From NCBI GenBank assembly GCA_963765765.1, contig CAVXYC010000005.1, forward strand, positions 1-35,281: a DNA stretch of 35,281 nt, written 5' to 3'. Position numbers and translations under genes: made by a program. The first letter of the stretch is position 1, and each line of letters begins with the position of its first letter. The stretch comes from an uncultured Chloroflexia bacterium. GTDB lineage: Bacteria; Chloroflexota; UBA6077; JACCZL01. Positions 3,742 through 34,652 of this stretch are shown piece after piece. The notes below the pieces were generated by a model. The model was given only the letters and a program-made list of their open reading frames with translations, did no database searches and was not told the origin of the DNA.

Positions 3742-4987
3742 ATGACTACACCCGTGCAAGGAGCGGATTCAACCAGCGATGATCGGTGCTGAATCCACCC
3801 TCGCCAGTCGCCCCCGTAAGGCCCGAGCAAGTCGCCGCGGTCCGAGTTGATGACGCTACCGCTGAACAGATTTCCACCGCGGTGCGAACCTACGTGGAGT
3901 CGCTCACCTCACTCGAGGCGCAATCACCCGAGTTCGAGCACAAAGTCACAGCGATCAGTCGTATGGGCAATGATGAGATTCGACGCTCGGCCGAGGCATC
4001 AAACCGATTTCTGGATCGACCCACGATCGCGCTCAAGGACGGACCGCTCTCACAGGGCTCTGACGTCTCCACGGCGCTCCTTTCACTCCGTCAGCAAATA
4101 GATAGCCTGGACCCTTCACGTCACCTGGGCAATCGTCGAGGCATCTTCAGTCGCCTGACCATGCGCGACGAAGTGGGCACGTATTTCCGCAAGTACCAGT
4201 CAGCGCAATCGCAGATTGAGGCCATTGTCAATAGCCTGTACCGAGGTCAAGACGAGCTGCTACGCGATAACGCCGCGCTGGAGCAGGAGAAAGCGCATCT
4301 CTGGGAGATGAAGCGCCGCCTGGAACAGTATTCATACATGGCCGGCAAGCTTGACGAGGCGTTAGAGACTGAGGTCCAGCAGATCTCGATCGAAGACCCT
4401 CAGAAAGCACGCGCACTGAAAGAGGATGCCCTCTTCTACGTGCGTCAGAAACGTCAAGACTTACTCACACAGCTCTCGGTCACAGTGCAGGGTTACCTGG
4501 CACTGGACCTCATCCGAAGGAATAACCTGGAGCTGTCAAGGGAGTAGAGCGGGCAACGACAACCACGGTCTCGGCCCTCCGCACAGCGGTCATCGCTGCG
4601 CTCGCCCTGGGAAACCAGCGCCTGGTGCTTGATCAGATCACCGCGCTCAACAGCACGACAGGCAACATCATTCAGTCCACCTCGGAGATGTTGCGACAAC
4701 AATCGGCCGAGATTCAGAATCAGGCCGCCAGCTCTACAGTGGACGTCAAACAGCTGCAGTCAGCCTTCGACAACATCTATGCGACAATTGATGCAATCGA
4801 CACCTTCAAGCTGTCGGCGCTGGACTCAATGAAGACGACGATTGACGCGCTCACCAAGGAGGTGGCGCGTGCCCAGACCCACGTGGAGCGAGCACGAGCA
4901 TCCGAGCTGGCCAGCTCCGGGCCGAAACGATGCAGCAGGAGCTTGTGTTGCCAGCTGAGAAGGGTGCCGCGTGACGGACTACGATAA
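3742..4987 (+). CDS. telA: Toxic anion resistance protein (TelA/KlaA/YaaN family), frameshifted; 3' end approximate
   Basis: RBS GAGGAGG before ATG 3742. Coiled-coil with YFRKYQSAQSQIEAIVNSL..GQDELLRDNAALEQEK, QKRQDLLTQLSV..QGYLALDLIRRNNLEL and LQSAFDNIYATIDAIDTFK. Confidence 0.88.
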
Positions 4988-5108
4988 CAGTGCCCCATCC
5001 CGTGAGGGGGCGGCTTTCCCGGGAGCCCAACAGACCCTCCGACCGGGATATCTACGAAGAACCGCACCCTCGAGGGACGCGGCTCTGTTAGCGAGAGGTC
5101 ATTAGACC

Positions 5109-5790
5109 ATGTGGTTACTACTATTCCCACTCCTGCTCGTGACCATTGTGCTCTCGATGATCCTGGGCACAGCGGCAATATTCGTGACCGTAGCCAGGGA
5201 TATGCCCGTCCTCCTGATCGCGCTAGGCGCCTGGATCGTATGGCGGGCGAATCGCCCAAGCTCACATCGCCGCGCGTATCGTTACGGGCATCGCCAATGG
5301 CGATACGAGGCCGATCAACGGCGACCCGAGGCTGGTCGCATCATCGAGCATGACACCGTAAAACCGCCCGCGGTCGGACCCGCCGCAGCGACCCCGATTC
5401 AGAGGCCGAGCGGGAGCTGCCCATCGATGTGCAAGTGATGGTGGAGCAGATCACGCGCAAGGCGGATGTCCTACAGGGCTATGCAGATCGCTTTCCTCCC
5501 ATGTCACAGGACTTGCACATCGTTCGGCAGACGGCGGCTGACTATCTCCCCAGAACGGTTAACGCATACCTGGCGTTACCGAGCGATGACGATCCGTTCG
5601 ACATCACCACCAATGAGGGGCGCTGCAGGAACTTCGCAACCAGCGACGGTTGCTGGACGTGAAACTTGACGAGATCGCGCAGGATCTTCAGCGTCAGGAC
5701 ATGGATCGTCTTCTTGCGAACCGACGGTTCCTCGAAGAACGATTCCGTCCACGCGAATTAGAAGAGCCAGCAGGAAGCGGCAAAAGCTAG
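5109..5790 (+). CDS. Membrane-anchored TelA partner (XpaC-like), frameshifted
   Basis: Two N-terminal TM helices, then a helical domain with HIVRQTAADYLPRTVNAYLALP ... LLANRRFLEERF. Adjacent to telA. Confidence 0.7.
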
Positions 5791-13074: not shown

Positions 13075-14482
13075 TTGAGCACGCGCAATATGACTGCCAC
13101 AGAGCAGCTCGCTGAGTATGTTGAAAATTTAGGGTACCAGCATCTTCCTGCATACATGGTATTGAATATGGCCAAGTTTAGCATTCGCGACATCGTAAGT
13201 GTGGCGCTGTTTGCAAGCGATCTCGACTGGACCAACCACGGCGGCGGCTATGGCTCGCGAAGCTGAATGCGCCCCTGTGGCCAGCGTCTGGGGCCACGGT
13301 TGGAAGACCTCTGCTCCTTACGCAGCGCTGGTCAACGGTACTGCCGCTCACGGCATTGAGATGGACGACCGGAACCATAACCTGGAGATTCACAATGGTG
13401 CTGCCACCGTTTCCGCAGCCATCGCCATGGCCGAGCGGTGCGGCAGAAGCGGGCGCGACATCATCCTTGGCGTGGTCTGTGGTTATCAGGTCGCCTTCCG
13501 CGTAGCGCGGGCAACTCGAGGGCGGCATCTGGCCGCGCTTCTATTCCGATGGAATCAGGAGCTTCTGGGGCGCCGCCGCTGCGGCGGCCAGGCTGCTCGA
13601 GCTCAGATAAAAGGGCATGGTCTATACCTTCGGTATCACCGTAAATATGGCTTCCGGCCCGATGGAAGACACGCTCGATCCATTTGGCACGATGGTCAAA
13701 CCACTCCAAGGCGGCGGATGGCAGGGTTATTCCGGCGTCATGGCTGCGCTCCTGGCGCAACAAGGGCTCACGGCGCCGCGCGCCATGATTGATGGCGAGG
13801 ATGGGTTCTGCATTTATTTTTGCACCGTCAAGGAGCCCGATCTCGAGCTTCTCACGAAAGACCTCGGGGAAGACTTCGAGATGCTCCACTGGGAGACAAA
13901 GCCTTACGCCACCCGCCGCGCTTACCACAGTGCCATCGACGCAGTGAAAGAGCTGCGCGCGGGAGCACGGCGTTCAAGCGGAGCAGGTTGAGCGCATCGT
14001 CATGGGTGCCTCCAGCCGATTCGCCGGCAATTCGAACGTCGGGAAGCCTGATTCGGTGATGGCGGCGCAGTACGCCTGGCCTTCGCTACTTCCGCCGCCT
14101 TTCGCCACGATCTAGCCAACCCCGCCATCTGGAACGAGCACACTCTTCGACGCGGCACGCCCGCATCTCGGACACGTGGAATCGAGCGTCGGTGGAAGTC
14201 GACCCCGAGATCGACGCGATCTACAAGCAGACCGGAACCAACGCGGGTATCCGTGTGACGGCTCAGCTCACGTCCGGTCAGATCATCAGCGTGTGGCGAA
14301 AACACGCCAAAGGCACACCGGGTAATCCGATGACACGAGCGGACCTGGACTCCAAGTTCACGCTCCTTGCAGCTCACGCGCTCGGAGATGAAGGTGCCGC
14401 CCGACTCGGATCCACTCTGGACCATCTCGAGGACGCGCCCGCGCCATTTGATCTCACCACCCTGACCACGCGTTCCGCGTAA
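13075..14482 (+). CDS. MmgE/PrpD family protein (paralog 1), frameshifted
   Basis: TEQLAEYVENLGYQHLP, APYAALVNGTAAHGIEMDD, IHNGA, GYQVAFRV, WETKPYA, KGTPGNPMTRADLDSKF. Confidence 0.9.
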
Positions 14483-14509
14483 TCGCGACGCGGCTGACAA
14501 GGACAAACT

Positions 14510-15928
14510 ATGAGAGAAACAGAGCAGCTCGTTACCTGGGTTGATCAACTCACCTACGCGGACCTGCCTGAGCCGGTGGGGTCCACATGGCCAAGGCATG
14601 CATTCGCGATGCAGTGGGTGTTGGCTTGTTCGCGAGCAGCCTTGAATGGACCGAATATGGTGGCCGCGATGGCTCGCGAGGGCCGACTGTGCGCCAGTTG
14701 CTAGCGTCTGGGACTGGGATTGGAAATCCTCGGCGCCATACGCCGCGATGATCAATGGCACCGGTGCCCACGGAATTGAGATGGATGATCCCAACGACAA
14801 CCTGGAGATTCACAACGGCGCTGCGACCGTTCCGCGCTGGCCTCGGCACTTGCCTAGAAATCGGGTAAGAGTGGCCAGGATCGGACCGTCGCGGTCGTGT
14901 GCGGTTTCGAGGTGGCGTTCAGGCTGGCTCGCGCCACGCAGGCCCGGATCGAGAACTTTTACTGGAGCAGCGTCCGCAGCGTGTTTGGATCGGCAGCGGC
15001 TTCAGGCAAGGTCATCGGGCTCGACCATAAGGGCTTGCTGAACACGCTTGGTATCACGGGCAGCCTGGCTTCGGGCCTGCACGAGCACACCCACACCAAT
15101 TCCACGCGGGACCATGGTGAAACGACTCCAGGGGAAAGGATGGCCGGCGCAATCAGGAGCGACCGCAGCGCTTCTTGCCGAGAAGGGCATGACGGCGCCG
15201 TCCACGATCCTGGAGGGCAAACTGGGTGTCTGCCAATCCTTCTTGCACCAAAGGTGAGCCCTATATCCAAGCGCTCGTTCGAGGGCGGAGCGAGGGATTC
15301 AAGACCTCCAGCACACCGGGAGACCAAACCGGACGAAACAATGGCCAGCGCGGCCGGCATCCTTGACGCTCTTTCACAGGCACGTGAAGAAGCCGTGGTG
15401 CCTCGCGAGACGAGGTGACGCGCATCTCAGTTGGCTGCTCGACAAAGAGCATGACAAACGCACGCCGCCCGTGGCCGCAATCGGTCCTGTCGGCGCAGGC
15501 GAATACGCCATTTGTCGTGGCCGCCAGCTTCTACTACGAGATGGGCTACCCGGGCATCTGGAGCGAAGGAATTCCTGTCCGACGAGCGTATCCCAAGGCT
15601 CGCGGAGCGCTTCGAGACATTCATCGACAATGAGCTGGAGCGTCAGGCCGCCGAGACCAATGTCATCGGTGCGGGCAAGGTCGCGCTGACGCTGGCCGAC
15701 GGGCGCACAATCAAGGGTGTGGGTACCACATCCATCGGGAACGCCTGAAAACCCACTCACGCAGTGGGAGCTCACCCTGGAAAATTTGGGAACCCTTGAA
15801 CAGCTCGCGCACTGCCGGATGCACAGATCGATGAGCTGCTGCGCTACATCAATACGCTCGACACGCACCGGGCCAGCTCGATTTGGCAGCGTCGCGGACA
15901 TGAGCGGGTTCAGATCACTGGAGTCTAA
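14510..15928 (+). CDS. MmgE/PrpD family protein (paralog 2), frameshifted; 3' end approximate
   Basis: MRETEQLVTWVDQLTYADLPE, APYAAMINGTGAHGIEMDD, GFEVAFRLA, GTMVKRLQGKGWPAQSG, GTPENPLT. Confidence 0.88.
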
Positions 15929-15955
15929 CCATTCAGCGACGGAGATCGCTACCAT

Positions 15956-17229
15956 ATGACCGATCGGAACACACAGCGCACATCATTGCGGGACCGCGCA
16001 CAGCAAAGTGCGGGCGGGATTCTGCTGATCGCATGCGTGGCTCTGGCCGCGTGCTCGAGTCGGCCGACGCCATCACCCACTACCAAGCCGTCGGCCCCGG
16101 TCTGCTCCGGCAAATCCTGGCAGGGCGCGGTCGCCGCATCTCCGGGTGGGTGGCGGAAGCCCGCTGCTTCACCGGCAGCCTCTCCAGCCGCCTCCCTCGC
16201 GGCGCAGGTGCCCGTCGTGCCGAAGCCGTCTGCGCCACCGGATCCGGCACTGGCCAGTGTGTGGTCGGGCAAGGTGTTCACCATGGTCATCAGCGAGGCG
16301 CCCTGGGCGGCGCCGCTGATGCTACGGCGCGGCTGGTGGGCACCCATCTGGTGAAGCACCTTCCCGGGCACCCCTACGTACGTTCCGCAGAACATTCCCG
16401 TGCCAATAGCCGTATCGCGGCCAACTCCCTGTACACAGCTAAAGGGGACGGATTGACCGTCGGGATGGTCAACTCCGGGGACCCTGCATTCCAGCTCGCT
16501 GGTGAAGGGCCCGAACAGGGGGTGCGCTACGACGTCACCAAGTTCCAGTGGATCGGGAGTCCCACGGTTCAGACGCAGGCGCTCGTGGTCCATCAGAAGA
16601 TCGGCGTCACAGTGCAGACGCTCGATCAGCCTGACCATAACTCGCGGCACTCGCTGGGCATCGCCGGGCGTAGACAACCCAGATGGTGTCGGTGCTGCTC
16701 AATCATGCGCTGGGCTGGAAACTCAAGACCGTCTTTGGTTACCAGGGCCTCCCCGGGCGCATCCTGGGCATCGATCCCGGCGAGGTGGACGGACTTGTGG
16801 CCACCTGGGACGGCGTACCATTGATCAAGGGCGACGACCTGCGCAACAAGACACTCTGGCCGCTTGTGATCGCCGGTAGAGATAAGGACGACCCGCTCCT
16901 GGCAGGCGTACCCAACGCAGAACGGCTTTTTGCCAACACCACACCCGAGACGCGAGAAATGCTGGCACTGGTGACACGGCCGTATGAATGGGCGCGACCG
17001 TTTCTGGCGCCTCCCGAAACGCCGGCCAACATCGTCGCCGGTTTGCGCGCCGCGTTCGACGCGACCATGGCAGATCCTGACTTCCAGGCCGAGGCCAGGC
17101 GCCTTCAGATCGACGTGCTGCCCGTCTCGGGCGAGCGCATGCAGACCGGGCATGGCCGAGTATCTGAAATCGTCGCGGGAGACCGTCGATAAACTCCAGG
17201 CGCTGGTCGACGCCGAGGCGCCTCAGTGA
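15956..17229 (+). CDS. TctC/Bug-family substrate-binding lipoprotein, frameshifted
   Basis: Lipobox VALAAC, PAASPAASPAAS linker, GGAADATARLVGTHLVKHLPGHP, GVRYDVTKFQWIGS, ARPFLAPPETP..LRAAFDATMADPDF. Confidence 0.88.
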
Positions 17230-17255
17230 TGTCCCGGCTCGACCTGGAGCTGTCG

Positions 17256-18637
17256 ATGACTATGAAGGAGACATCTCGGCTCGCGTCCTTCCTCGCAGAT
17301 CTTCACTACGAGGATCTGCCGCCGGACGTCGTCGAGCTTGCCAAAGCTGGCGATTCGAGACGCTATCGGCGTGGGCCTGTTCAGCACCCGCCTGGAGTGG
17401 TCGCAGATCGTCGCGGACTTTGCTCACGATATGGCGGGCGAAGGGCCGTGCCACGGTCTGGGGGCGACCGTGGCGGATGACGGCTCCGTACGCGGCCCTG
17501 GTGAACGCGACGGCCACGCACGGAATCGAGATGGACGATCGCAGCCACAACCTGCAGATCCACAACGGCGCGACCACTGTGCCCGCGGCCGTCTGCGCTC
17601 TACCGAGCACGCAGTGGCCGCTCGGACGCGACCTGATCCTGGCAGTGGTGTGCGGTTACGAAGCGGCCTACCGCGTGGCCCGAGCATCGCAGCGGCGCAT
17701 CGAGCGTTTCTACTGGGTGAGCAACCGGAACATCTGGGGTGCGTCGGCCGCAGCGGCGAAGGCGCTGAAACTGAGCCAGGGCGAATTCGTGTGTGCGTTC
17801 GGAATCGCTGGCGGCATGGCGTCGGGTCTGTGGGAATTCACCCACGATCAGGCGGGCATGATGTCCAAGCGACTCCAGGGCGGCGGCTGGCCTGCGTACT
17901 CCGGAGTAACGGCGGCGCTTCTCGCACAGCGCGGATTTACCGGACCAGCCAGCATTCTGGAAGGTGAGAGCGGATTCTTACAGTCATTTTGCACCGCGGG
18001 AGAACCCGACACTGAGGCACTGGTGCGGAATCTGGGTGAAGATTTCGAGATGCGCCACTGGGAGACCAAGGCCTACGCCACGCGCGGCGTCTTCAGCACG
18101 CCTGTGGAATGCGTCTATCGTTTGGTAGCGGAGCATGGTGTTGAGCCGCGGAGCATCAGACGGCTCGCGCTGGAGTGTCGTGAAGGGCTGGTCCAGCACA
18201 CGACTACCGGTCGGCCCCCGTCGCTTACGGCCGCTCAGTACAACGTGCCCTTCGTCGTAGCGGCAGCCTTCTACTACGATCTCCAGGATCCGTCCATCTG
18301 GGACGAATCGATCCTGCAAGACGAGCGCGTCCTGGCGCTCTCCGAGCTTGTGGAAGTACAGCCAGATCCACAGGCATCCGACGAGTACGGTCCGCTGGGC
18401 TCACGCCTTACGGCGACGCTGGCGGATGGCCGAACCGTGAGCGTGCACGTGCGACACGACAAAGGGTCACCGGAAAACCCCATGACGGCGCATGACGTAC
18501 ATGCGAAGTTCGATGTGTTGAGTCGGCACGCACTGCCCCGCGCCCAGGCGGATGCTCTAAGTCTAATCATCGACAAGCTCGATCGCGTCGACACACCGCT
18601 GGATTTGAGCAATCTGGCGGGACGGTCGACTCGCTGA
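17256..18637 (+). CDS. MmgE/PrpD family protein (paralog 3), frameshifted near the N-terminus
   Basis: ETSRLASFLADLHYEDLPPDVV, APYAALVNATATHGIEMDD, KRLQGGGWPAYSG, GFTGPASILEG, KGSPENPMT. Confidence 0.92.
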
Positions 18638-18652
18638 AGGAGACCGAATAAC

Positions 18653-20040
18653 ATGAGAGAGACCCAGCAGCTCGCGGAGTACGTGTCTTCGCTGCGATAC
18701 GAGGATTTACCGTCCGAGGTGGTGATCACCGCCAAGAACGTCATCCGGGACATGGTGGGCGTCGGGTTATTTGCCAGCCGACTCCCCTGGACTGAGAAAG
18801 TGACCGACTTCGCCCAGGCCGCGGGCGGCCGAGGCAAGAGCACGGTCTGGGGTCGGGAGTGGCAGCTGACGGCGCCGTACGCCGCATTAGCCAACGGCAC
18901 AGCCGCCCACGGCATCGAGATGGATGAGCGGATCCACGGCCAGGACCTGCACAACGGCTCGTCGAGCGTCGCGGCCGGCATTGCCACTGCCGAGTATGCC
19001 GAGGGCAACGGGCCGGGACCTGATTCTGGCAATCGCCTGCGGTTATGAGATCGCGTCCCGCGTCAGTCGAGCATCCGATCGGCAAGCGCGACAGTTCTAT
19101 CCCAGCAGTCTGTGGAACATCCTGGGATGCACCACGGCCGTGGGCCTGCTCCTTGGCCTGGATGCCGTAGGACTGCAGAACGCGCTGGGCATCGCCGGCG
19201 GCATGGCCTGCGGCCTCACCGAATACAATCACGACCCGCACGGGACCATGGTCAAGCGGCTCCAGGGTGGCGGCTGGCCCGCCCAGGCGGGCGTGACGGC
19301 CGCTATGCTGGCACAACGGGGTTTCACCGGCCCGATCGAGCATCATCGAGGGTGAGAACGGCATGCTGCGTTCGTTCTGCACCACCGGCGAGCCAATCAT
19401 GGAGGCACTCACCGATCGGCTCGGCGAAACCTGGGAGATGCCGCTCTGGGAGACCAAGTGGTTCGCCGCCTGGGGCGGATCGCACAGCGGAATCGAGGCC
19501 GTCCTCACACTGCGCGAAGAGCACGACCTGACACCCGAGCAGATCGACTCGATCGAAGTTGGCATCAGCGAGAAGATCTATCCTGAGACGCAGAGGCCGG
19601 CGCCGCGCAGTATCCTAGCTGCCCAGCACAATCTGCCATTTATCCTCGGCGCCGCATTCTATTACGACCTGCACGATCCACGAGTGTGGCAGGACAGCAT
19701 TCTGGACGACGAACGAGTGCTAGCCATCGCCGCCCGTGTCAAAGCACATGTGGATCAGGAGGTCAACGATATCGTCCTCGCCACCCGCGATCTCGGTGGC
19801 ACCAAGATGACCATCGATCTATCCGACGGTCGCCAGGTGAGCACCTACGTGCGCTACACCAAGGGAACGCTGGACAATCCACTCTCACCTGCCGAGCTTG
19901 ATGATAAGTTCCGCATGATGAGCGGCGCCGCCCTCGGCCCCCAGCAAGTTGATGCTCTCAGCCACCTGCTGACGAATCTCGAGCGTACTGACCGGCCGCT
20001 GGACATGAGCCTGGCGCTGCGTCAGGGAGCGCTCGCATAG
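18653..20040 (+). CDS. MmgE/PrpD family protein (paralog 4), frameshifted
   Basis: RBS AAGGAG. MRETQQLAEYVSSLRYEDLP, APYAALANGTAAHGIEMDE, KRLQGGGWPAQAG, WETKWFA, KGTLDNPLSPAELDDKF. Confidence 0.92.
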
Positions 20041-22565: not shown

Positions 22566-22878
22566 CCTCCGCCCCTTCTGGCGCCGTTCGCGCCAGGCGA
22601 TTGTGCGCCGCCGCTATATTACTGACGAGATTAACAAGCGGATTAACCGTACCACGTAGGAATCCGACAAATGGCGACCGATTTCAGGTGAAATCTGGCA
22701 ATCTATGCGGCTTGTCAGGCCTGGCGCCGGAGCGCGTGGCTATTGCAAGGGGCAGCCTCTAGTGGGTGTGCTGCGGGTGCCAATTCGTACCCGGTGCACG
22801 TGGCCGTCTCGGAAGGGAATTCTTACGATGACTGCAATCTCGGGACTGGAATCCAGGCCTTCAGGAAAGGCGAAAGCC

Positions 22879-23683
22879 ATGCGTGTCAATGTTGGCTGCG
22901 AGCTAAGGATTTAGTTCGCCCGCGCCGTGCCGCTCGTAGCTCAAGCGTTCCGCGCACTGACGATGCGCACGAGATTCTCCGCGAAGAGCGCTCGGCTGAA
23001 CCAATCGATCGATCGCACGAATATCAGGATGCCTTCGGGAATCGCTGCTGGCGCATCCTGTCGCCAGCCGTGAACTTCTCGTTTCGCTACGATGCGGAGG
23101 TGATTATCACCGGCGAGCTGGATCCGGGTGGTACCCGAGGCGATGCAGATTCCAGTGGAGGACCTGCCGGAACTCCTCTCGCCTGGACGCTCCCAAGCCG
23201 TTACATCCTCTCTGATGTGCTGGGCAGCACGGTCTGGGATCTCTTTGGCTCAACGCCCCCCGGGTGGGGCCGCGTGCAGGCGATTTGCGATTGGGTCCAT
23301 CAGCACATTCAGTTCCGAGCCGCAAGCACCACCCCCGCTACCACAAGCCTGGATGTGTATCATCAGCGCTACGGCTTTTGCCGAGATTTCGCCCACCTGG
23401 GTATCACCATGTGCCGCGCTTCAATATTCCCGCACGCTACGTCTTCGGCGACCTTCCAGACATCGGCATTGAGCCGCCGGATGTACCCATGGACTTCCAT
23501 TCCTGGTTCGAGGCCTATCTGAGCGGGCAGTGGTACACGTTTGATGCGCGACACAATGAACCGCGCATTGGACGGATTCCGATCGGCCGCGGACGCGACG
23601 CCCTGGATGTCGCCATCGTCACCCAGTATGGCGCCAGCACGCTCGCGGGTATCAGCGTCTGGTCGGATGCAGTCGACGCTTAA
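22879..23683 (+). CDS. Transglutaminase-like protein, frameshifted
   Basis: YQDAFGNRCWR, LPSRY, GWGRVQAICDWVH, and catalytic triad motifs GFCRDFAHL, MDFHSWFEAYL and WYTFDARHN. Confidence 0.9.
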
Positions 23684-23706
23684 CCAGGGAATACAGGGCT
23701 CGGTCG

Positions 23707-24651
23707 TTGACAGCCTTGAAACTCCCGCCACACTGCTTGACCATGCCAGCGTGGATTGGGACCGAGTACGGCGCACCAGTTACCTGGTCGACCAGGTGCT
23801 GCGCTACGAATATCCCGGCCCGTGGAAAATCTGCATCAGCGTCTAGTGCTTTCCTTCACGATCGATACGGACAACAGCGGCTTCTGAATCGCCACCTTCA
23901 AGTGAGCGGTCCTCAACCGAGGCTTCAAGAAGAGCTCGATCAGTTCGGAAACCGGTGTGCCATCTGTTGGTGCCGCGAACCGAGCGGGTTATCGAATTTG
24001 AGGTCCGTTTTCTGGTGGAGCTCAATCGCGCTGCACGTCCACTTTCGCCGTAAATATGAAGGACCCGGAGTACCTGGAGCCGACGGCTCTCACGATGCCT
24101 GACGGACACCTGAAGGAAGTCGCGACCCAGCTCGCCGGTTCGGGCGATCGCCCTGGACCTCCCGAACCGAATCAATGATTGGGTCAGGCAAACCATCGAG
24201 TACAAGAAGGATGTGACGGCGTGAAGACCACGGCGGCGGAGGCATTTTCGCTTCGCGCGGTGTGTGCCAGGACTACTCCCACATCATGATCAGCATCTGT
24301 CGGCTCCTTGAGACCCGGCCCGCTACATATCCGGTCATCTCCTGGGCGAGGGCGCGACGCATGCCTGGGTCAAGGTGCTCGCGCCTGATCCCGTTCATCG
24401 TGATCGATTCAGCATCCAGGCCTTCGATCCCACTAACGGTCGCCGGTGTCGCGCCGATGCGATTACGGTTGCCGTGGGACGCGACTATTCGGACGTATCG
24501 CCCACCTCCGGGAACGTTCGCGGCGCCCTACGGCGGGTTCCTCTCCAGCCGCAAAGCGGCCGGCATCATTGAGCTAGAGTACTTCGAGCCGGAAGCTGCC
24601 TATCCCTCGCAGGAACAGTCGACTGGTGGCGCTCCTTCCTGCTGCTTCTGA
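23707..24651 (+). CDS. Transglutaminase-like protein with a bacterial transglutaminase N-terminal domain, frameshifted; ends approximate
   Basis: LRYEYPGP, DQFGN, GVCQDYSHIMISICRLL, SGHLLGEGATHAWV, AFDPTNG, VAVGRDYSDVSPTSG. Confidence 0.87.
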
Positions 24652-24717
24652 GTCACACGGCACGATGAGTCCCGCGCCAACTACCATTCCCGGTATTAAC
24701 TCAACGGGAGTTCTGCT

Positions 24718-25291
24718 ATGCCGCGTATCCGTCCCATTACTGTTGACGAAGCCGAACCGCAAGTTCGAGCCGCGATGGAGCGCAACCTTGAAGTGTTTGG
24801 ACGCGTCCTCCCGAGCACCGAAGTTACGGGCACGCTCCCAGAGTGCAAGAAGGCGCTCGCGCCCTTGACGCGGGAATCACCGCCGCCGACGAATCTCACC
24901 CGAGCTTCGATCATTGATGAACGTACGCGTGGCCGCCACGGTCGGCTGCCCATTTTGAATGGATAGTAATGCTGCCGGGAGCAGCAGGAACGGTGCGTCC
25001 GACGAGAAGATCGCCGCCGTCTACGAATACGAGAAAAGCGATCTCTTTACGCCGGCCGAGCGCGTCGCGCTGGAGCTGGCCGACGCCATGACGGAGACGC
25101 CACCAAACGTGACCGATGAGCTCTTCGCGCGCCTCCAGGAGCACTACAACGAAGCCGAGCTTGTGGAGCTCGCCGCGATCGTCGCGCAGGAGAACTTCCG
25201 CTCTCGATTCAACACGACGTTCAGGGTTGAAAGCGCGGGCATGTATTGTCCCGTTCCTCCAGCGTCCGTCGACGCCGAGCCTGACGCCTGA
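24718..25291 (+). CDS. AhpD/carboxymuconolactone-decarboxylase-fold peroxidase-like protein with CxxU; probable selenoprotein
   Basis: MPRIRPI.. then, after an indel, ELRSLMNVRVAATVG-C-P-F-(TGA 24956-24958)-MDSNAAG..FTPAERVALELADAMT..LQEHYNEAELVELAAIVAQENFRSRFN. Confidence 0.85.
24956..24986 (+). promoter_or_regulatory. Putative bacterial SECIS element
   Basis: UGA, 11 nt spacer, then hairpin UGCUGC-cggga-GCAGCA with G at the second loop position. Confidence 0.7.
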
Positions 25292-25343
25292 TCCTATGGA
25301 GTGCGCGCGGGGGCGCACTCCATATCTGGCTACTGCCGCTAAG

Positions 25344-25760: not shown

Positions 25761-26153
25761 TCAGGCGTGCCAGTCGGGATGATCGTCCCATTGACTGATC
25801 ACGCCGTTGGCGGCTTCCAGAGCATGGTTCGTCTTGGGAAAGCCGATGTACGGCGCGCACTGAACGATCGTCTCGATGATCTCTTCGCGGGTTGCACCGC
25901 GGTTGAGCGCGCCGCGCGTGTGAATGGCCACCTCGCCGGGCAGGTCCTGCGCCGCGGTGGCAGCAATCACGATCAGCTCGCGCAGCTTCAGGTCCAGGCC
26001 AGGGCGAGCCCAGATGGTGCCGAAACAGTATTCCAGGATACTTTCAGCATGCCCGGGATCTATCTCATTGAGAGCGCGCCAGCGCTCTTCGCCGTTCTCA
26101 CCAAAGGCACTCCGTCGGATCTCCTGGCCACGTTGCCGTCGATCGTCACTCAT
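25761..26153 (-). CDS. Carboxymuconolactone decarboxylase family protein (PcaC-like)
   Basis: Intact. FGTIWARPGLDLKLRELIVIA..HTRGALNRGATREEIIE..YIGFP; no CxxC. Confidence 0.9.
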   Translation of the reverse strand: MSDDRRQRGQEIRRSAFGENGEERWRALNEIDPGHAESILEYCFGTIWARPGLDLKLRELIVIAATAAQDLPGEVAIHTRGALNRGATREEIIETIVQCAPYIGFPKTNHALEAANGVISQWDDHPDWHA

Positions 26154-26177: not shown

Positions 26178-27038
26178 TTATCGGAACAGCGGATGCCCGA
26201 TGCCTGGCGTCTTCACACGCAGGCTGTAGATGGACGTCCGAGCAGTGAAGTAGATCGTTCTCAGATCTGGCCCGCCAAAGACCAGATTCGCGGGGACCTC
26301 CGGCGTGCGGATAATACCGAGCTTCTCGCCAGCGGGATTGAATACCCACGTGCCACCCGCCCCGGTGCAAAAGATATTGCCAGCAACATCCACTTTCATA
26401 CCGTCCTGTACGCCGTCCGTCTCGTCCGACGACATATCGGCAAAGATCCGCCGCCGTACTACCGTCCGATCATCGGCGAGCTCGAAGACGTGGATGTATT
26501 GACTGAATCGCGTGTTGGAGACGTACAGCAGCTTCTCGTCCGGAGAAAACGCTAGTCCGTTGGGGTACTCGCAGTTGGCCACCAACGATACATCGCCATC
26601 CGAAGCGATCCGATACACGCCGGAATAGAGCAACTCCTTTTGATCCAGCGGTACGCGTAAACCGGGATCAGTGAAATAGAGGCTGCCATCCGAGGCGCAG
26701 ATAACGTCATTCGGGCGACTGAGTCGTCCGCCTTCAAATCGGTCGACCAGTGTCTCAGCGTCGGAGCCGGGAGTCCAGCGAGCAATTCGTCGACTCCCAC
26801 CCTCGCAGACGATGATCCGACCCTGGAGATCCAGCGTCGTGCCGTTGCCGTCCCCGGTGTTCTCTCGAATCAGCTCCGGCGAGCCGCCTGGAACGAGCTT
26901 GTAGTACTTCCCCACCCAAATGTCTGAAAAAGTCAGATATCCGTCCCTATGCCAGATAGGCCCCTCGACGAACTCAAAGCCCGTCGCGACCCGCTCAGGC
27001 TCGGTCGTTTCTAGAATCGCGCTGAGGTCTTCGTTCAT
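26178..27038 (-). CDS. SMP-30/gluconolactonase/LRE family protein
   Basis: Intact. GFEFVEGPIW, RPNDV, LYFTDP, PNGLAFSPDEKLLYV, DGMKVDVAGN, ANLVFGGPD. Confidence 0.95.
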   Translation of the reverse strand: MNEDLSAILETTEPERVATGFEFVEGPIWHRDGYLTFSDIWVGKYYKLVPGGSPELIRENTGDGNGTTLDLQGRIIVCEGGSRRIARWTPGSDAETLVDRFEGGRLSRPNDVICASDGSLYFTDPGLRVPLDQKELLYSGVYRIASDGDVSLVANCEYPNGLAFSPDEKLLYVSNTRFSQYIHVFELADDRTVVRRRIFADMSSDETDGVQDGMKVDVAGNIFCTGAGGTWVFNPAGEKLGIIRTPEVPANLVFGGPDLRTIYFTARTSIYSLRVKTPGIGHPLFR

Positions 27039-27175: not shown

Positions 27176-28261
27176 CTATCCATTGGGCGTGATCACCGCC
27201 ACCATGGCTTCCAGCGTCTCACTGGCACGGAATGCCTCGTTCGCCTGGTCCAGCCCGTATTTGTGGGACACCATGCGCTCGACCGGGTACGGCGTCATGG
27301 TCTGCATGGCTTCAGGCAACGGATAAATGACTCCGGGTCGGCTCCTGACACGCCGGTTACCCGCAGCCCCTTCTGCACGATATGAGCTGGATTGATGGGC
27401 ACCGCGCCAAAGTCCGTGGCTGAGCCAACCAACAGATACCGGCCACGGAGCGGACCATCTCCAGCCCCTCCTGAACGACGGACTGGTCCCGGCGCACTCG
27501 ATGACCACGTCCGCACCGCGGCCGTTGGTGATATCCTGAATGCGCTGCACACGCGCTTCCGGCGTGGGAAAATCCTGCAGATCCAGCGTCTCGCTGGCGC
27601 CCAGCTCAAGCGCCATCTCGAGCCGATGTGACGGCGCACCAATCATGATGACTCGGCCGGCGCCCGCGGTCTTCGCCTGCACCAGGCCTGCCATGCCCAT
27701 GGGTCCGGAGCCTTGAACGACGACGGTGTCTGCCAGGCCAATGCCGCCCATGCGCTGAATGCCGCGCCAGTAGGTGGGGTTGCCGGTCACGCTGATGAGT
27801 GCCCGCTCCGACGTCACGTCGTCCGGAATCTTCAGAATCCATCGACGTGTGGGCTCAAGGTAGACGTACTGGCTGAAGCCTCCGGTAATGTGCGGCGGCT
27901 CGGTGAACGGCCGCATGCCGTACATCATGCGCTCTTCACAGTTCTCAGCCATGGCGCAGCTTCGGCACTTACCGCACGGGGCCGAGCGGAAGAGAACGCG
28001 GTCTCCCTCCCGTAGCGGTTGACCGAGTACGTCCTTATCCAGTCCCTGTCCCGCCATCGCGAGCGTAGCCACGTTCTCGTGGCCGAAGATCATAGGGTGC
28101 GGGGTGGTATCGATGTGCAGGTTGTGTACGTCCGTCCCGCAGACCGCGGCCATGGACATCTTCACGATGGCACCGCCCGGCGGCGGATCGGGAACCGGGA
28201 ACTCCTGCACTTCCAGCGGCTTACCAGCCCCCACAAAGACCGCGGCCTTCGATGTCGTCAC
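27176..28261 (-). CDS. Zinc-dependent medium-chain alcohol dehydrogenase, internal compensating frameshifts
   Basis: Catalytic Zn VCGTDVH and FGHE; structural Zn CGKCRSC..C; Rossmann VVVQGSGPMG; GRGADVVIECAG. RBS GGAGGT before GTG. Confidence 0.92.
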   Translation of the reverse strand: MTTSKAAVFVGAGKPLEVQEFPVPDPPPGGAIVKMSMAAVCGTDVHNLHIDTTPHPMIFGHENVATLAMAGQGLDKDVLGQPLREGDRVLFRSAPCGKCRSCAMAENCEERMMYGMRPFTEPPHITGGFSQYVYLEPTRRWILKIPDDVTSERALISVTGNPTYWRGIQRMGGIGLADTVVVQGSGPMGMAGLVQAKTAGAGRVIMIGAPSHRLEMALELGASETLDLQDFPTPEARVQRIQDITNGRGADVVIECAGTSPSFRRGWRWSAPWPVSVGWLSHGLWRGAHQSSSYRAEGAAGNRRVRSRPGVIYPLPEAMQTMTPYPVERMVSHKYGLDQANEAFRASETLEAMVAVITPNG

Positions 28262-28486
28262 AATCCCACCTCCCGATCTGCGCGTCTCTGCATTGTTCCG
28301 GCCCATCGCCCGCCGTCAACGGGGGCATGAAAGGCAACGGAGCCGCATCCGAATCGTTGAGGGCGGCACTCGCGGGTGCTATCCTCGCGGCTGGTTCCCT
28401 GCACTTCGCGTATTCATCCCAGCGAACGCGACGCACGAAGCGCCGCCGGGAGGTACCGTAGTCTGGACTCCACGTTCGTCTCTCCG

Positions 28487-29886: not shown

Positions 29887-31627
29887 TCAGGGCGCAGCCT
29901 TGATTCCTGTCAGATGAGTCCATGTCCCGGAGATGTTGCCGGGGAACACGTAGTCGCCAACGACGCGCGGATTGACCACCGCTTCGGTCGGCAGCCAGAA
30001 AAGCGGGATGTCCTGGTGCAACGGGAAGGCTAAGTCTCCAAGCTGACGCCACAGCTCTGCCTGCTTGGCCTCGTCCAGCTCCACGCGCACGCGGTTGAAC
30101 AGCTCATCGACCTCGTAGTTTTCAACCATTGAGCCACGTGTACCGTGCACACCCGTGTTGTAGGCACGGAACCCGAGCAGTTGGTGAGAGCTGGTACTGC
30201 GGACCTGTACTTCGTTGGTGTATTCCAGTCGCAGGCTGCGGTCGCGGATCTGTGTTGCATCCACGGTAAGCTGATCCGGCGTTACGCCGATCGCCCGCCA
30301 GTAGCCCGCGATAGCTTCGGCGATATCCTCCGATTCTGGCAGGTCCGCCAACCTCTGCATAAACATCGACGTGCTCAACGGGCGGCTTGAAGAGTATCCA
30401 GCCTCTGCCAGAAGAGCGCGCGCCTTCGCCGGGTCGTAACCGTACTCATCTTTGAACTTCGTTTCCCACTCCGGGTTCCAACCGAGGCGGGTTGGGTTGT
30501 AGTGATTCAGCGCCATGACGTCGGCCTTGCCACCAAAGAAGGCCTGATTCATCTCATCCCGATTAATCGCCTTGTTGAGCGCCCGGCGCACGCGAACGTC
30601 CATCAAGGGGCTCTCCGGTATACATGTAGCCTTTGGATGCGTCAACGGGATCGCTCTTATAGCAACAATGGAATGACGCAAACGTCCGCACACTCTGAGT
30701 TTGGCCGCGCAGCGCCTTCATTCCCTGTTTGCTCGCCTCGACGAGCAGATCCTGAGGCAGCGTGGTGGCGTGCACCTCACCCGCCTGCAGCGAAGCTAGC
30801 CGAGTGGACGCCTCCCGCTGCCAGCGGAGCTCGAGCTCCGGGAAGTCCGGCGTCGTTCGCCAGTGCTGATAGGGTACGCGCTCAAACCGAATGTGTGAGC
30901 CCTGGGTGCGGTCTTTGAACTGGTACGCGCCCGTCCCCGCGGTCGGGTTCCCGGAGAGGCTTGGGCGGCCCTCAGCTTCGAAGTGCGCCTTGCTCTTGAT
31001 CTCAACGCCGCTCACGAGCTCGCCCGACACATTCAGGAAATCCGCGTCGGGGCGTTTGAGCCGCACCACGATCTCATGATCGTTGACGATATCGATTCCG
31101 TCGATCAGCCCCCGGAAGTACCCCGAGTTTCCGTGCTGGGAGTCCTCCTGCATGATGTTCCAGAACGAGAACTCGACGTCTCTGGCCGTCATCTGGCCCC
31201 AGCCACCGTGGAACTGGACTCCCGGGCGCAGCTTGAATCGGTACGATTTCCCGTCCGGTTCTACGCTCCATGAGAGAGCAAGCTGCGGAACGAACTTACC
31301 ATTGGCCGGGTCAACCCCGATCAAGTACTCGTACATCGGGCGGATCTGGAAACTTGGCGGCGAGCTGTAGTCACGACCGGGGTCGTTGCCCTCGGTGCTC
31401 GGGGCAGGCATGCTGAACACCAGTCGCTCAACTCTGGCCTTGGCGGCCGGGGCCGCGGTTGGCGGGGCCGGTGCGGCGGTAGGAGCGGACGCAGCCGCCG
31501 TCGGCTTTGGAGCCTGGACGGCGGTGGGAGCAGGGGGAGTGGATGCCTGGCCGCAAGCGATGGATATGGCCAGCGGCAGGCTGACCAGGAGAACCAGTAT
31601 GGGTGACGGTTTGGAATAGTGTTGCAC
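29887..31627 (-). CDS. ABC-type substrate-binding lipoprotein, family 5 (DppA/OppA-like), one frameshift
   Basis: Lipobox ISIAC, PQLALSWSVEPDGKSYRFKLRPGVQFH, GTGAYQF, DVRVRRALNKAINR, YDPAKARALLAEAGY. Confidence 0.92.
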
Positions 31628-33532: not shown

Positions 33533-34583
33533 TTACAGCCCGAAGAATCTCCTGGGGTTCGCCTCCAGGATCTGCTCCTGATCAGCCTCCGACAAACCAG
33601 AGCGGCGTAGGTCCTCGATAGCCGACGGCCAGAGGCCGTTGGGGTCGCCGTGATAGAAGTCGCTGCCCAGCATGAATTGATGGTCGGGCACCAGCCGCAC
33701 CATGTCGGCGAGGGATGGCTCTTTGGTGTGCACCGTGATGTAGAAGCGGTCGATGTACTCGCTGGGCATCCGCTCGAGGTGCGCGATCAGTCGCGAGGCC
33801 TGGCCGCGCTCCAGATGGTCCTGGTAGTAAATGTCCAGCCGTTTGACAAGGTACGGCACCCAGCCCACGCCGGCCTTGAACATGCCGAATTTCAGCGTGG
33901 AAAGCGATCCAGAGCGCCGCTGAAAATCAGGTGCGCCATGGTCAGCATGTAGGTGAACGAAAAGCCCAGCGCGGAGCCCAGGAAACCGTACTCGGCGCCG
34001 AATCGATCGGCGCCAACCAGCGCGGTGTTCAGCGGCTGAGCATCGGAAGTACGCGCCGCTCCGTGCGCCAGCACGGGCACGTCTAGCTCGGCCACCTTCG
34101 CCCAGAACGGGTCCAGCTCACGGCTGCCCAGGTGGAGATCGCCGACCGCACCGTTACTTTTACCGACCGCAAGCCGAGCGTATTGACGGCCCGCTCCAGC
34201 TCCTTGATCGCGCCGTCGATGTCGGCCAGATAAACCCAGGCCACACCGATGTAGCGATCGTGCCCCTTGATCGCCGCGGCGGTGGCGTCGTTGTAGGCGC
34301 GGGCTAGCGAGTTGCCGATCTCCGGATCGTCCTCATAGATCAGGGGTCGGTTCTCCGGAATGAGCACCTGCCGATCGAATCCGTGGCGGTCCATCACCGC
34401 CGTGCGCTTGCTCAGGTCGTAGCCGTCCTCCGGGATGCTGATCAGCGGTGCGCCCTGCCGCAGCACGTTGATTCGTGTGCCGTCGCGCTGATATTGAATC
34501 CAGTCTCGCGCTGCCGGGCTGTCCACGTGGTCTAGCCACTCCAGCGGCAGATAATGCGTGTCGGCATCGATGTACAGGGTCAT
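33533..34583 (-). CDS. Amidohydrolase_2 family metalloenzyme, frameshifted
   Basis: YIDADTHY, LARAYND, AIKELERAV, VPVLAHG, LIFSGALDRFP, AGVGWVP, MLGSDFYHGD, ILEANPRRFFGL. Confidence 0.9.
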
Positions 34584-34652
34584 GACGTCGTCTCCCCCTT
34601 TGCGCAACCTTGAGCGCAAGCGCCACTCAGAATAGGTTAAGGTTCTCAACCG

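Follow-up and report, generated by a model that had tools for sequence, protein, structure and literature searches.

The question raised by this locus is whether a TGA codon inside a conserved protein domain ends a gene or encodes selenocysteine (Sec). The locus (24718 to 25291, plus strand) lies in a 35,281-nucleotide (nt) stretch of contig CAVXYC010000005.1 from an uncultured Chloroflexia bacterium, and this whole stretch is referred to here as the window. A sequence-only reading of the window had claimed a hidden selenoprotein of the AhpD/CMD fold with a C-x-x-U motif and a selenocysteine insertion sequence (SECIS), and the comparative evidence presented below supports that claim. We consider it very probable that the gene encodes a CMD/AhpD-fold selenoprotein in which the UGA at 24956 is decoded as Sec by means of a SECIS hairpin within the gene itself.

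The codons GGC TGC CCA TTT TGA ATG GAT (24944-24964, plus strand) place the TGA (24956-24958) exactly where the sequence-only reading had put it, at the second-cysteine place of the CxxC motif, and translate as G-C-P-F-U-M-D-S-N when TGA is written as U. Read through in this way, the frame includes ...ISPELRSLMNVRVAATVGCPFUMDSNAAGSSRNGASDEK... and stays open until the stop at 25289-25291; the encoded protein would have about 190 residues. The Pfam CMD domain (PF02627) spans the TGA, matching readthrough residues 7-72 with E=7.6e-13 and 48.7 bits against a cut-off of 23, and the redox motif of this CMD/AhpD-like domain is present as C-P-F-U. The domain had been described as continuing in frame on both sides of the TGA. 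This description held for the domain match, which crosses the codon, but not for the N-terminal third, which is spread over three frames.

A genome scan using one genome per species recovered 232 confirmed relatives, and the best 80 were kept as loci. The aligned codon is TGA in all 80 of these loci, which bears out the earlier claim that the TGA is no chance error, and the G-C-P-F-U context is present in 61. By record title the carriers belong to Chloroflexota (with Dehalococcoidia and Thermomicrobiales), Acidobacteriota, Gemmatimonadota, Proteobacteria, Myxococcota and Verrucomicrobia, together with one metagenome-assembled genome of Streptosporangiaceae. A start of the form M-x-R-[IVLMF] was located 78-80 codons upstream in the same frame in 52 loci, while the strict start pattern assigned none to the remaining 28. 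The terminal stops of the same genes are TGA (38/80), TAG (35/80) and TAA (7/80).

An exhaustive search of 50%-identity protein representatives was used to examine the residue that replaces Sec in more distant homologues. The best 150 were taken and 122 of them span the motif, with Cys at the Sec position in 119, Arg in two and Ser in one; 12 of the 28 non-spanning representatives begin just past the Sec position. The tblastn-type comparison that had been proposed for Cys or TGA homologues therefore returned TGA in 80 of 80 loci and Cys in 119 of 122 distant full-length homologues. A Sec/Cys pair at the second CxxC position is an accepted selenoprotein signature. As a side observation, one of the two spanning homologues with Arg (P0125, ...QCPFRIDS...) would fit either a single substitution that turned UGA into CGA or AGA, or an annotator's readthrough call.

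Public protein entries of the family look very different from the genomic loci. A search of a large protein collection gave 237 matches, and nearly all of the best 120 measure 77-124 amino acids and are confined to the region downstream of the TGA. Among 18 sequences inspected, 14 begin right after the UGA (MD-x-N...) and three start 2-8 residues further on, the remaining one (P0084) being of the Cys form (GCGFC). The fragments carry the names 'hypothetical protein' or 'alkylhydroperoxidase family enzyme', the latter a COG2128-style name from JGI. Fragments that start after the UGA are the typical trace left where gene callers have taken a Sec codon for a stop, and the earlier description of a known but routinely misannotated class agrees both with the literature since 2005 and with these database homologues cut at this codon.

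The same fragments invite a simpler reading, namely that the TGA arose by a substitution error or really does end translation, and that 24959-25291 is an independent gene of 110 amino acids. An open reading frame (ORF) of that length was called here, more than 100 such fragments exist in databases, and an ATG immediately follows the TGA. Nevertheless, the same TGA recurs in all 80 relatives from independent assemblies, and many of them have ATT, ATC, GTG or CTG in place of ATG directly behind it. Moreover, the CMD domain and the alignments to solved structures cross the TGA, position 24959 is not preceded by a Shine-Dalgarno-like motif, and the fragment alone would miss the entire catalytic motif. 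An independent short gene is therefore very improbable, and we rejected it because the shared TGA of the relatives and the domain across the codon already contradict it.

A conserved hairpin downstream of the codon

The sequence-only reading had also claimed a hairpin of 6 base pairs (bp) starting 11 nt past the UGA, and such a hairpin was found in the window (Table 1). It is the centroid of the local fold as well as the minimum free energy structure of a 40-nt stretch. In an effort to evaluate its conservation, the window and the 80 loci (81 sequences) were aligned without gaps from -6 to +50 around the UGA. The RNAalifold consensus consists of exactly the six pairs of the window, with compensatory changes in five of the six. 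Pair 21-37 is UA in 39 sequences and CG in 26, while pair 22-36 is UA in 34, GC in 32, AU in 6, UG in 4 and GU in 3. Pair 25-33 is GC in 73 and AU in 7, and pair 26-32 is CG in 66, UG in 8 and GC in 7. The covariation score, computed with two extra outer pairs that are mostly unpaired, was 0.341 against 0.120 ± 0.010 for shuffles and was reached by none of 500; it fell to 0.036-0.170 when the 3' partners were slid by 1-3 columns.

Constraint on the element is equally visible at the level of single bases and codons. The loop consensus is C-G-[G/U]-N-[A/G], its second base (24977) being G in all 81 sequences. Two third-codon positions inside the element are near-fixed (24973 is T in 80/81 and 24976 is C in 79/81), third positions outside it being freely variable. 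The paired codons covary in the protein as well, such that Ala, Ser or Thr (GCU/UCU/ACU) goes with Ser, Arg or Ser (AGC/AGA/AGU). Linked codon changes of this kind show that the RNA constrains the encoded peptide, here N-A-A-G-S-S, and the family illustrates cleanly how an RNA element can shape a protein, since the hairpin obliges two codons to change together. The earlier argument that a chance coincidence of hairpin and TGA is unlikely is strengthened by the covariation and the synonymous-site conservation over the 81 sequences, not by the single-sequence fold, which does not exceed chance. Position, conservation and covariation together support a functional-looking SECIS. In the proposed mechanism, this coding-sequence hairpin would act as a bacterial SECIS that recruits SelB with Sec-tRNA(Sec) to the ribosome.

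The spacing of the hairpin had been likened to that of the SECIS of E. coli fdhF. Both are coding-sequence hairpins about 11 nt past the UGA and both have a G in the apical loop. The stem here has only 6 bp, or 8-9 bp in some relatives, and the loop is C-G-[G/U]-N-[A/G]; the likeness is supported for the spacing.

Conservation of the hairpin and of the terminal stops also bears on a reassigned genetic code, in which TGA would be read as Trp or Gly rather than Sec. Reassignment would likewise give an in-frame TGA within a conserved domain. However, TGA still serves as the stop of these genes in 38 of 80 loci and in the window, which excludes an alternative code, and at the aligned position 119 of 122 homologues have Cys and none has Trp or Gly. 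A reassigned code would, in addition, need no conserved hairpin at a fixed spacing. This explanation is hardly credible, and it was rejected because TGA still ends these genes and because Cys is what matches it in homologues. In the window (25289-25291) and in those 38 loci, UGA appears to be used doubly in one mRNA, as Sec with a hairpin and as a terminator without one, and such genes carry an internal control for context-dependent decoding.

Fold, catalytic residues and possible chemistry

To describe the fold, a profile (A4) was built from 52 full-length relatives with Sec written as Cys. The profile matches AhpD-like proteins of solved structure, and its motif columns align with their CxxC; these matches include Atu0492 (2gmy, 1.2e-23), the debrominase Bmp8 (6ohi, 5.3e-22, almost full length with profile 5-170 on chain 13-177) and PA0269 (2ijc and 2o4d, about 1e-20). 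An AlphaFold model of one orthologue (L001, which shares 78% identity with the window where the two match) is all-helical, with a pLDDT (predicted local distance difference test) of 95.7 and a pTM (predicted template modelling score) of 0.90, and a helix from residue 79 holds U81. Foldseek comparisons of this model gave TMq values of 0.73 for PA0269, 0.81-0.82 for Bmp8, 0.85-0.87 for 2prr and 0.50 for M. tuberculosis AhpD.

Eight residues are invariant in all 52 full-length relatives, namely C78, U81, D83 (U+2), G93, A157, E159, N160 and N166; the E, N and N of ...QENFRSRFN... are kept in the part of the window gene that follows the TGA. Position U+4 is Asn in the window, as the sequence-only reading had noted in place of the usual His, and among the 80 loci it is N in 62, H in 13, G in 3, K in 1 and S in 1. 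At the relay-Glu position, 12 residues ahead of the first Cys, the window has Ser; the 52 relatives have S in 17 cases, A in 9, C in 5 and K in 5, with others, and Glu is not among the eight commonest. Cys-form homologues (n=104) have Gly (70), Asn (18) or His (5) at +4. Since the Cys forms also lack the relay residues, the loss of the relay is a subfamily trait and not a consequence of Sec. A Y-C-P motif close to the C-terminus (window about 25250-25260) hardly varies in the nearest Chloroflexota relatives (alignment A1) but is not kept in the family at large (A4); its Cys may be an additional redox residue peculiar to that clade.

The protein would most likely be a selenol/thiol oxidoreductase. 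UGA 24956, decoded as Sec, would complete a Cys-Pro-Phe-Sec redox motif in an all-helical CMD/AhpD-like fold, and the Sec, in the first turn of its helix, would attack an oxidised substrate such as a peroxide, a sulfenate or a disulfide. The Cys three residues upstream would then resolve the adduct as a Cys78-Sec81 selenenylsulfide, and a cellular thiol system would re-reduce it.

Genomic neighbourhoods were examined for a partner of such an enzyme. No conserved gene partner is shared in 25 related neighbourhoods (149 ORFs), and the flanks vary by genome; only L001 and L014 have a PEP mutase upstream. One neighbourhood (L003) contains a peroxiredoxin gene (4131-4613, plus strand) with an in-frame TGA at T-P-G-U, on the same strand about 1.2 kb upstream of the AhpD-like gene, and its readthrough matches AhpC-TSA 1-123 of 124 with E=5.5e-34. 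L003 thus has another gene for a selenoprotein, one from a classical family, which speaks for the Sec reading of the AhpD-like gene. The two are separated by a DsrE-like gene (5087-5647), and an FMN-reductase-like ORF lies further upstream; among the 25 neighbourhoods, the Sec-peroxiredoxin and the DsrE-like gene occur together in L003 only.

A selenoprotein with other chemistry, acting as a reductive dehalogenase or another small-molecule reductase in the manner of the CMD-fold debrominase Bmp8, has to be weighed against this oxidoreductase. Bmp8 (6ohi, 6ohj) is of the same length class and full-length architecture, has its CxxC at the same place and is the best full-length solved match. The AhpD His/Glu relay is absent here, the 25 neighbourhoods show no conserved AhpC partner, and Bmp8 is proposed, according to a review, to dehalogenate by oxidising its own cysteines to a disulfide (PMC5577590). 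On the other hand, identity to Bmp8 is only 24%, and the residues after the motif differ, Bmp8 having C-M-Y-C-K-S-H and not the invariant U/C-x-D of this family. Neither the window nor the 25 neighbourhoods examined contain a halogenase or biosynthetic cluster, and a Sec-peroxiredoxin is nearby in one relative (L003). Bmp8-like chemistry is improbable on this balance. A broader proposal, that the C-P-F-U-x-D-x-N clade is a distinct and very widespread soil and groundwater subfamily of Sec-dependent small-molecule reductases (for example a deiodinase-like reductive dehalogenase) and not a peroxidase adaptor, draws on the lost relay, the missing AhpC partner and the thiol-dependent debrominase Bmp8 as nearest solved full-length relative. 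We put it forward as a conjecture that is quite improbable as it stands.

Reading frame and surroundings of the window copy

The selenoprotein gene is not intact in the window. The TGA frame is open for just 29 codons upstream, back to a stop at 24866-24868, and the ATG at 24718 is out of that frame, the offset (24956-24718 = 238) not being divisible by 3. A DNA alignment of the window with the two closest genome loci (L001 and L002) located two frame breaks, which spread the N-terminal third over three frames (Table 1). At least seven other window genes are split into consecutive ORFs in differing frames, each ORF covering the next part of a single Pfam model, as judged from a Pfam scan of the 95 window ORFs of at least 110 amino acids. 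Because these genes are split likewise, the two frameshifts are probably consensus errors of the assembly. Taken together, the split genes could reflect either indels throughout the contig or a pervasive decay of its genes.

Table 1. Features of the selenoprotein gene and split genes elsewhere in the window
Feature	Position	Strand	Details
Shine-Dalgarno-like GGGAG	24706..24710	+	7 nt 5' of the ATG; direct reading; AGGAGG aligned in L001 and L002
N-terminal segment, ATG frame, MPRIRPITVDEAEPQVRAAMERNLEVFGRVLPSTEV...	24718..24824	+	Aligns with N-termini of full-length relatives (MPRIR...)
First frame break, 1 base absent relative to L001/L002	about 24821..24825	+	1-nt gap, alignment A2 column 123; continues as YGHAPRVQEGARALDAGITAA
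Middle segment, second frame, YGHAPRVQEGARALDAGITAA	24825..24889	+	Matches L001 'YGHAPTIQEGARALDAGISAAG'
Second frame break, 1 base absent relative to L001/L002	24889..24890	+	1-nt gap, alignment A2 column 192; continues as RISPELRSLMNV...
Third-frame segment up to the Sec codon, RISPELRSLMNV...	24890..24955	+	Holds first Cys of the motif, TGC 24947-24949
In-frame TGA, predicted Sec, second position of C-P-F-U	24956..24958	+	TGA of relatives, Cys of homologues, CxxC of solved structures
C-terminal two thirds with own stop TGA 25289-25291	24959..25291	+	110-amino-acid ORF of gene callers; P0003 identical
SECIS-type hairpin UGCUGC-CGGGA-GCAGCA	24970..24986	+	Stem 24970-24975 / 24981-24986, loop 24976-24980, 6 bp
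G+C-rich hairpin of 12 bp, no U-tract	25295..25324	+	-28.7 kcal/mol, z = -2.66, 2/200 shuffles equal
TelA, split	3786-4547 and 4625-4987		Pfam, successive model parts
MmgE/PrpD, three split genes	13199 and 13617; 14646 and 14897; 18653, 18924 and 19363		Pfam
Transglutaminase-like gene, split	22743 and 23264		Pfam
SBP_bac_5 gene, split	30563-31627 and 29887-30693		Pfam
Amidohydro_2 gene, split	34083-34649 and 33533-33883		Pfam

The frame breaks could alternatively be real, in which case the family would be a genuine selenoprotein family while the window copy would be a decaying pseudogene. Two 1-nt gaps relative to L001 and L002 within the N-terminal third, and a TGA frame that is open only 29 codons upstream, are what such decay would leave. 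Yet the similar splitting of at least seven other window genes points to a problem of consensus quality and not to the loss of one gene. Every family-invariant residue is retained across the three frames, the hairpin is perfect, and fragments 92-94% identical are present in other datasets. A pseudogene is accordingly unlikely, and an intact gene misread by the assembly remains the preferred explanation.

Several observations do weigh against the selenoprotein reading. The window copy is not intact, and the full protein may not be expressed. The folding energy of the window hairpin is no better than that of shuffles (z = -0.67 and -0.98), single-sequence z values across seven sequences ranging from -0.4 to -2.8. 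The stem has no bulge, unlike that of the E. coli fdhF element, which has one bulged nucleotide. Rfam gave no match for the whole window at gathering thresholds or for 24850-25100 at E up to 10, a null that is uninformative because no library family matched bacterial SECIS elements of this kind. The 35-kb window contains no tRNA, and its 95 scanned ORFs no SelA, SelB or SelD domain; the flanks of the 80 loci (790 kb) gave no sel gene and 12 tRNAs, none of them for Sec. Since selC need not be linked, the absence of tRNA-Sec from window and flanks is likewise uninformative. Finally, the proton-relay His (+4) and Glu (-12) of AhpD are not kept, which weakens a specifically AhpD-type chemistry, and an AhpC-TSA domain was found in none of the window ORFs scanned and, within the 25 neighbourhoods, only in L003, about 1.2 kb upstream.

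A scan of the whole window for other in-frame TGA codons with at least 40 open codons on each side gave 117 candidates, none of them outstanding. So many are expected because the window is G+C-rich and frameshifted, and the target gene itself fails this filter because of its own frameshift. The G+C-rich hairpin just downstream of the gene (Table 1) may be a terminator or a repeat element. A consensus promoter and terminator scan found no promoter and did not list this hairpin; the sole terminator-like site that it returned lies on the minus strand inside the gene, is within chance expectation and was rejected.

The genes around the selenoprotein gene are of varied character. Two transglutaminase-like genes lie directly upstream (22743-24651, plus strand), both frame-fragmented, the second (about 23541-24651) being judged by eye from ORF translations. 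A second CMD-family gene (25761-26153, minus strand, PF02627 E=9e-24) follows 470 nt downstream; lacking a CxxC motif, it looks like the gamma-carboxymuconolactone decarboxylase type. Beyond it are an SMP-30/gluconolactonase gene (26178-27038) and a zinc-type alcohol dehydrogenase (Zn-ADH) gene (27176-28306), on the opposite strand to the selenoprotein gene. Further upstream are four tandem MmgE/PrpD genes (13199-20040, plus strand), three broken and one intact (17420-18637), and an MmgE/PrpD gene is also near the copy of the selenoprotein gene in another relative (L067).

Relation to known systems

AhpD proper, represented by the M. tuberculosis enzyme (1knc) and PA0269 (2o4d/2ijc), has in common with the present family a helix-turn-helix core with C-x-x-C, and PA0269 superposes with a root mean square deviation of 1.3 Å over 139 columns. 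In the published description of M. tuberculosis AhpD and PA0269, as far as it concerns the active site, Cys48, Cys51 and His55 are invariant in the AhpD family and Glu36 takes part in the proton relay (PMC3141380). In contrast, the window gene has Asn for His55 and Ser for Glu36, no ahpC adjoins it, and the TM score of the L001 model against M. tuberculosis AhpD is only 0.5.

Selenoproteins of this fold have been described repeatedly. The Sargasso Sea survey of 2005 (Zhang, Fomenko, Gladyshev) lists 27 AhpD-like CxxU sequences under COG2128 (PMC1088965), and the section of the 2008 analysis of Global Ocean Sampling data (Zhang and Gladyshev) on this group separates 'AhpD-like 1' (COG2128, 299 Sec forms and 902 Cys homologues) from 'AhpD-like 2' (pfam02627, 70 Sec forms) (PMC2398784). 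A 2026 review names an 'AhpD-like protein, TIGR01926, CxxU' alongside several AhpD-related NCBIfam selenoprotein models (PMC13188914). A database paper of the same year uses the AhpD-like family as a browsing example and mentions Dehalococcoidia genomes with 46-49 selenoproteins (PMC13326102). By their descriptions, the published AhpD-like selenoproteins resemble the present family in fold class, in a CxxU motif with Sec second, in a downstream SECIS and in their many Cys homologues. The sets so described are marine, whereas the relatives found here come mainly from soil and groundwater Chloroflexota and Acidobacteriota. The finding is biologically nothing new in kind, AhpD-like CxxU selenoproteins having been known since 2005, but it shows them to be frequent among terrestrial Chloroflexota and Acidobacteriota.

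Its practical value lies in annotation. Gene callers cut the family at the UGA and have left more than 100 headless fragments in public protein sets, and the clade is not rescued automatically because the nearest NCBIfam selenoprotein model stays below its cut-off. TIGR01926 matches with 34.7-43.1 bits against a cut-off of 81.8. The best curated match is NF053654, 'YciW-related (seleno)protein' (GroundWater_YciW), which is also annotated as a selenoprotein or Cys form. It aligns end to end with full-length relatives (model 1-177 of 179, E=1e-38 to 5e-44), but its cut-off is 310 bits, whereas the window fragment scores 126.4 bits and three full-length relatives score 132.8-150. By these scores the window clade is a sister of NF053654 and not a member. 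By motif and fold, the gene falls into the AhpD-like (CxxU) class known for many years, within a clade unclaimed by current models.

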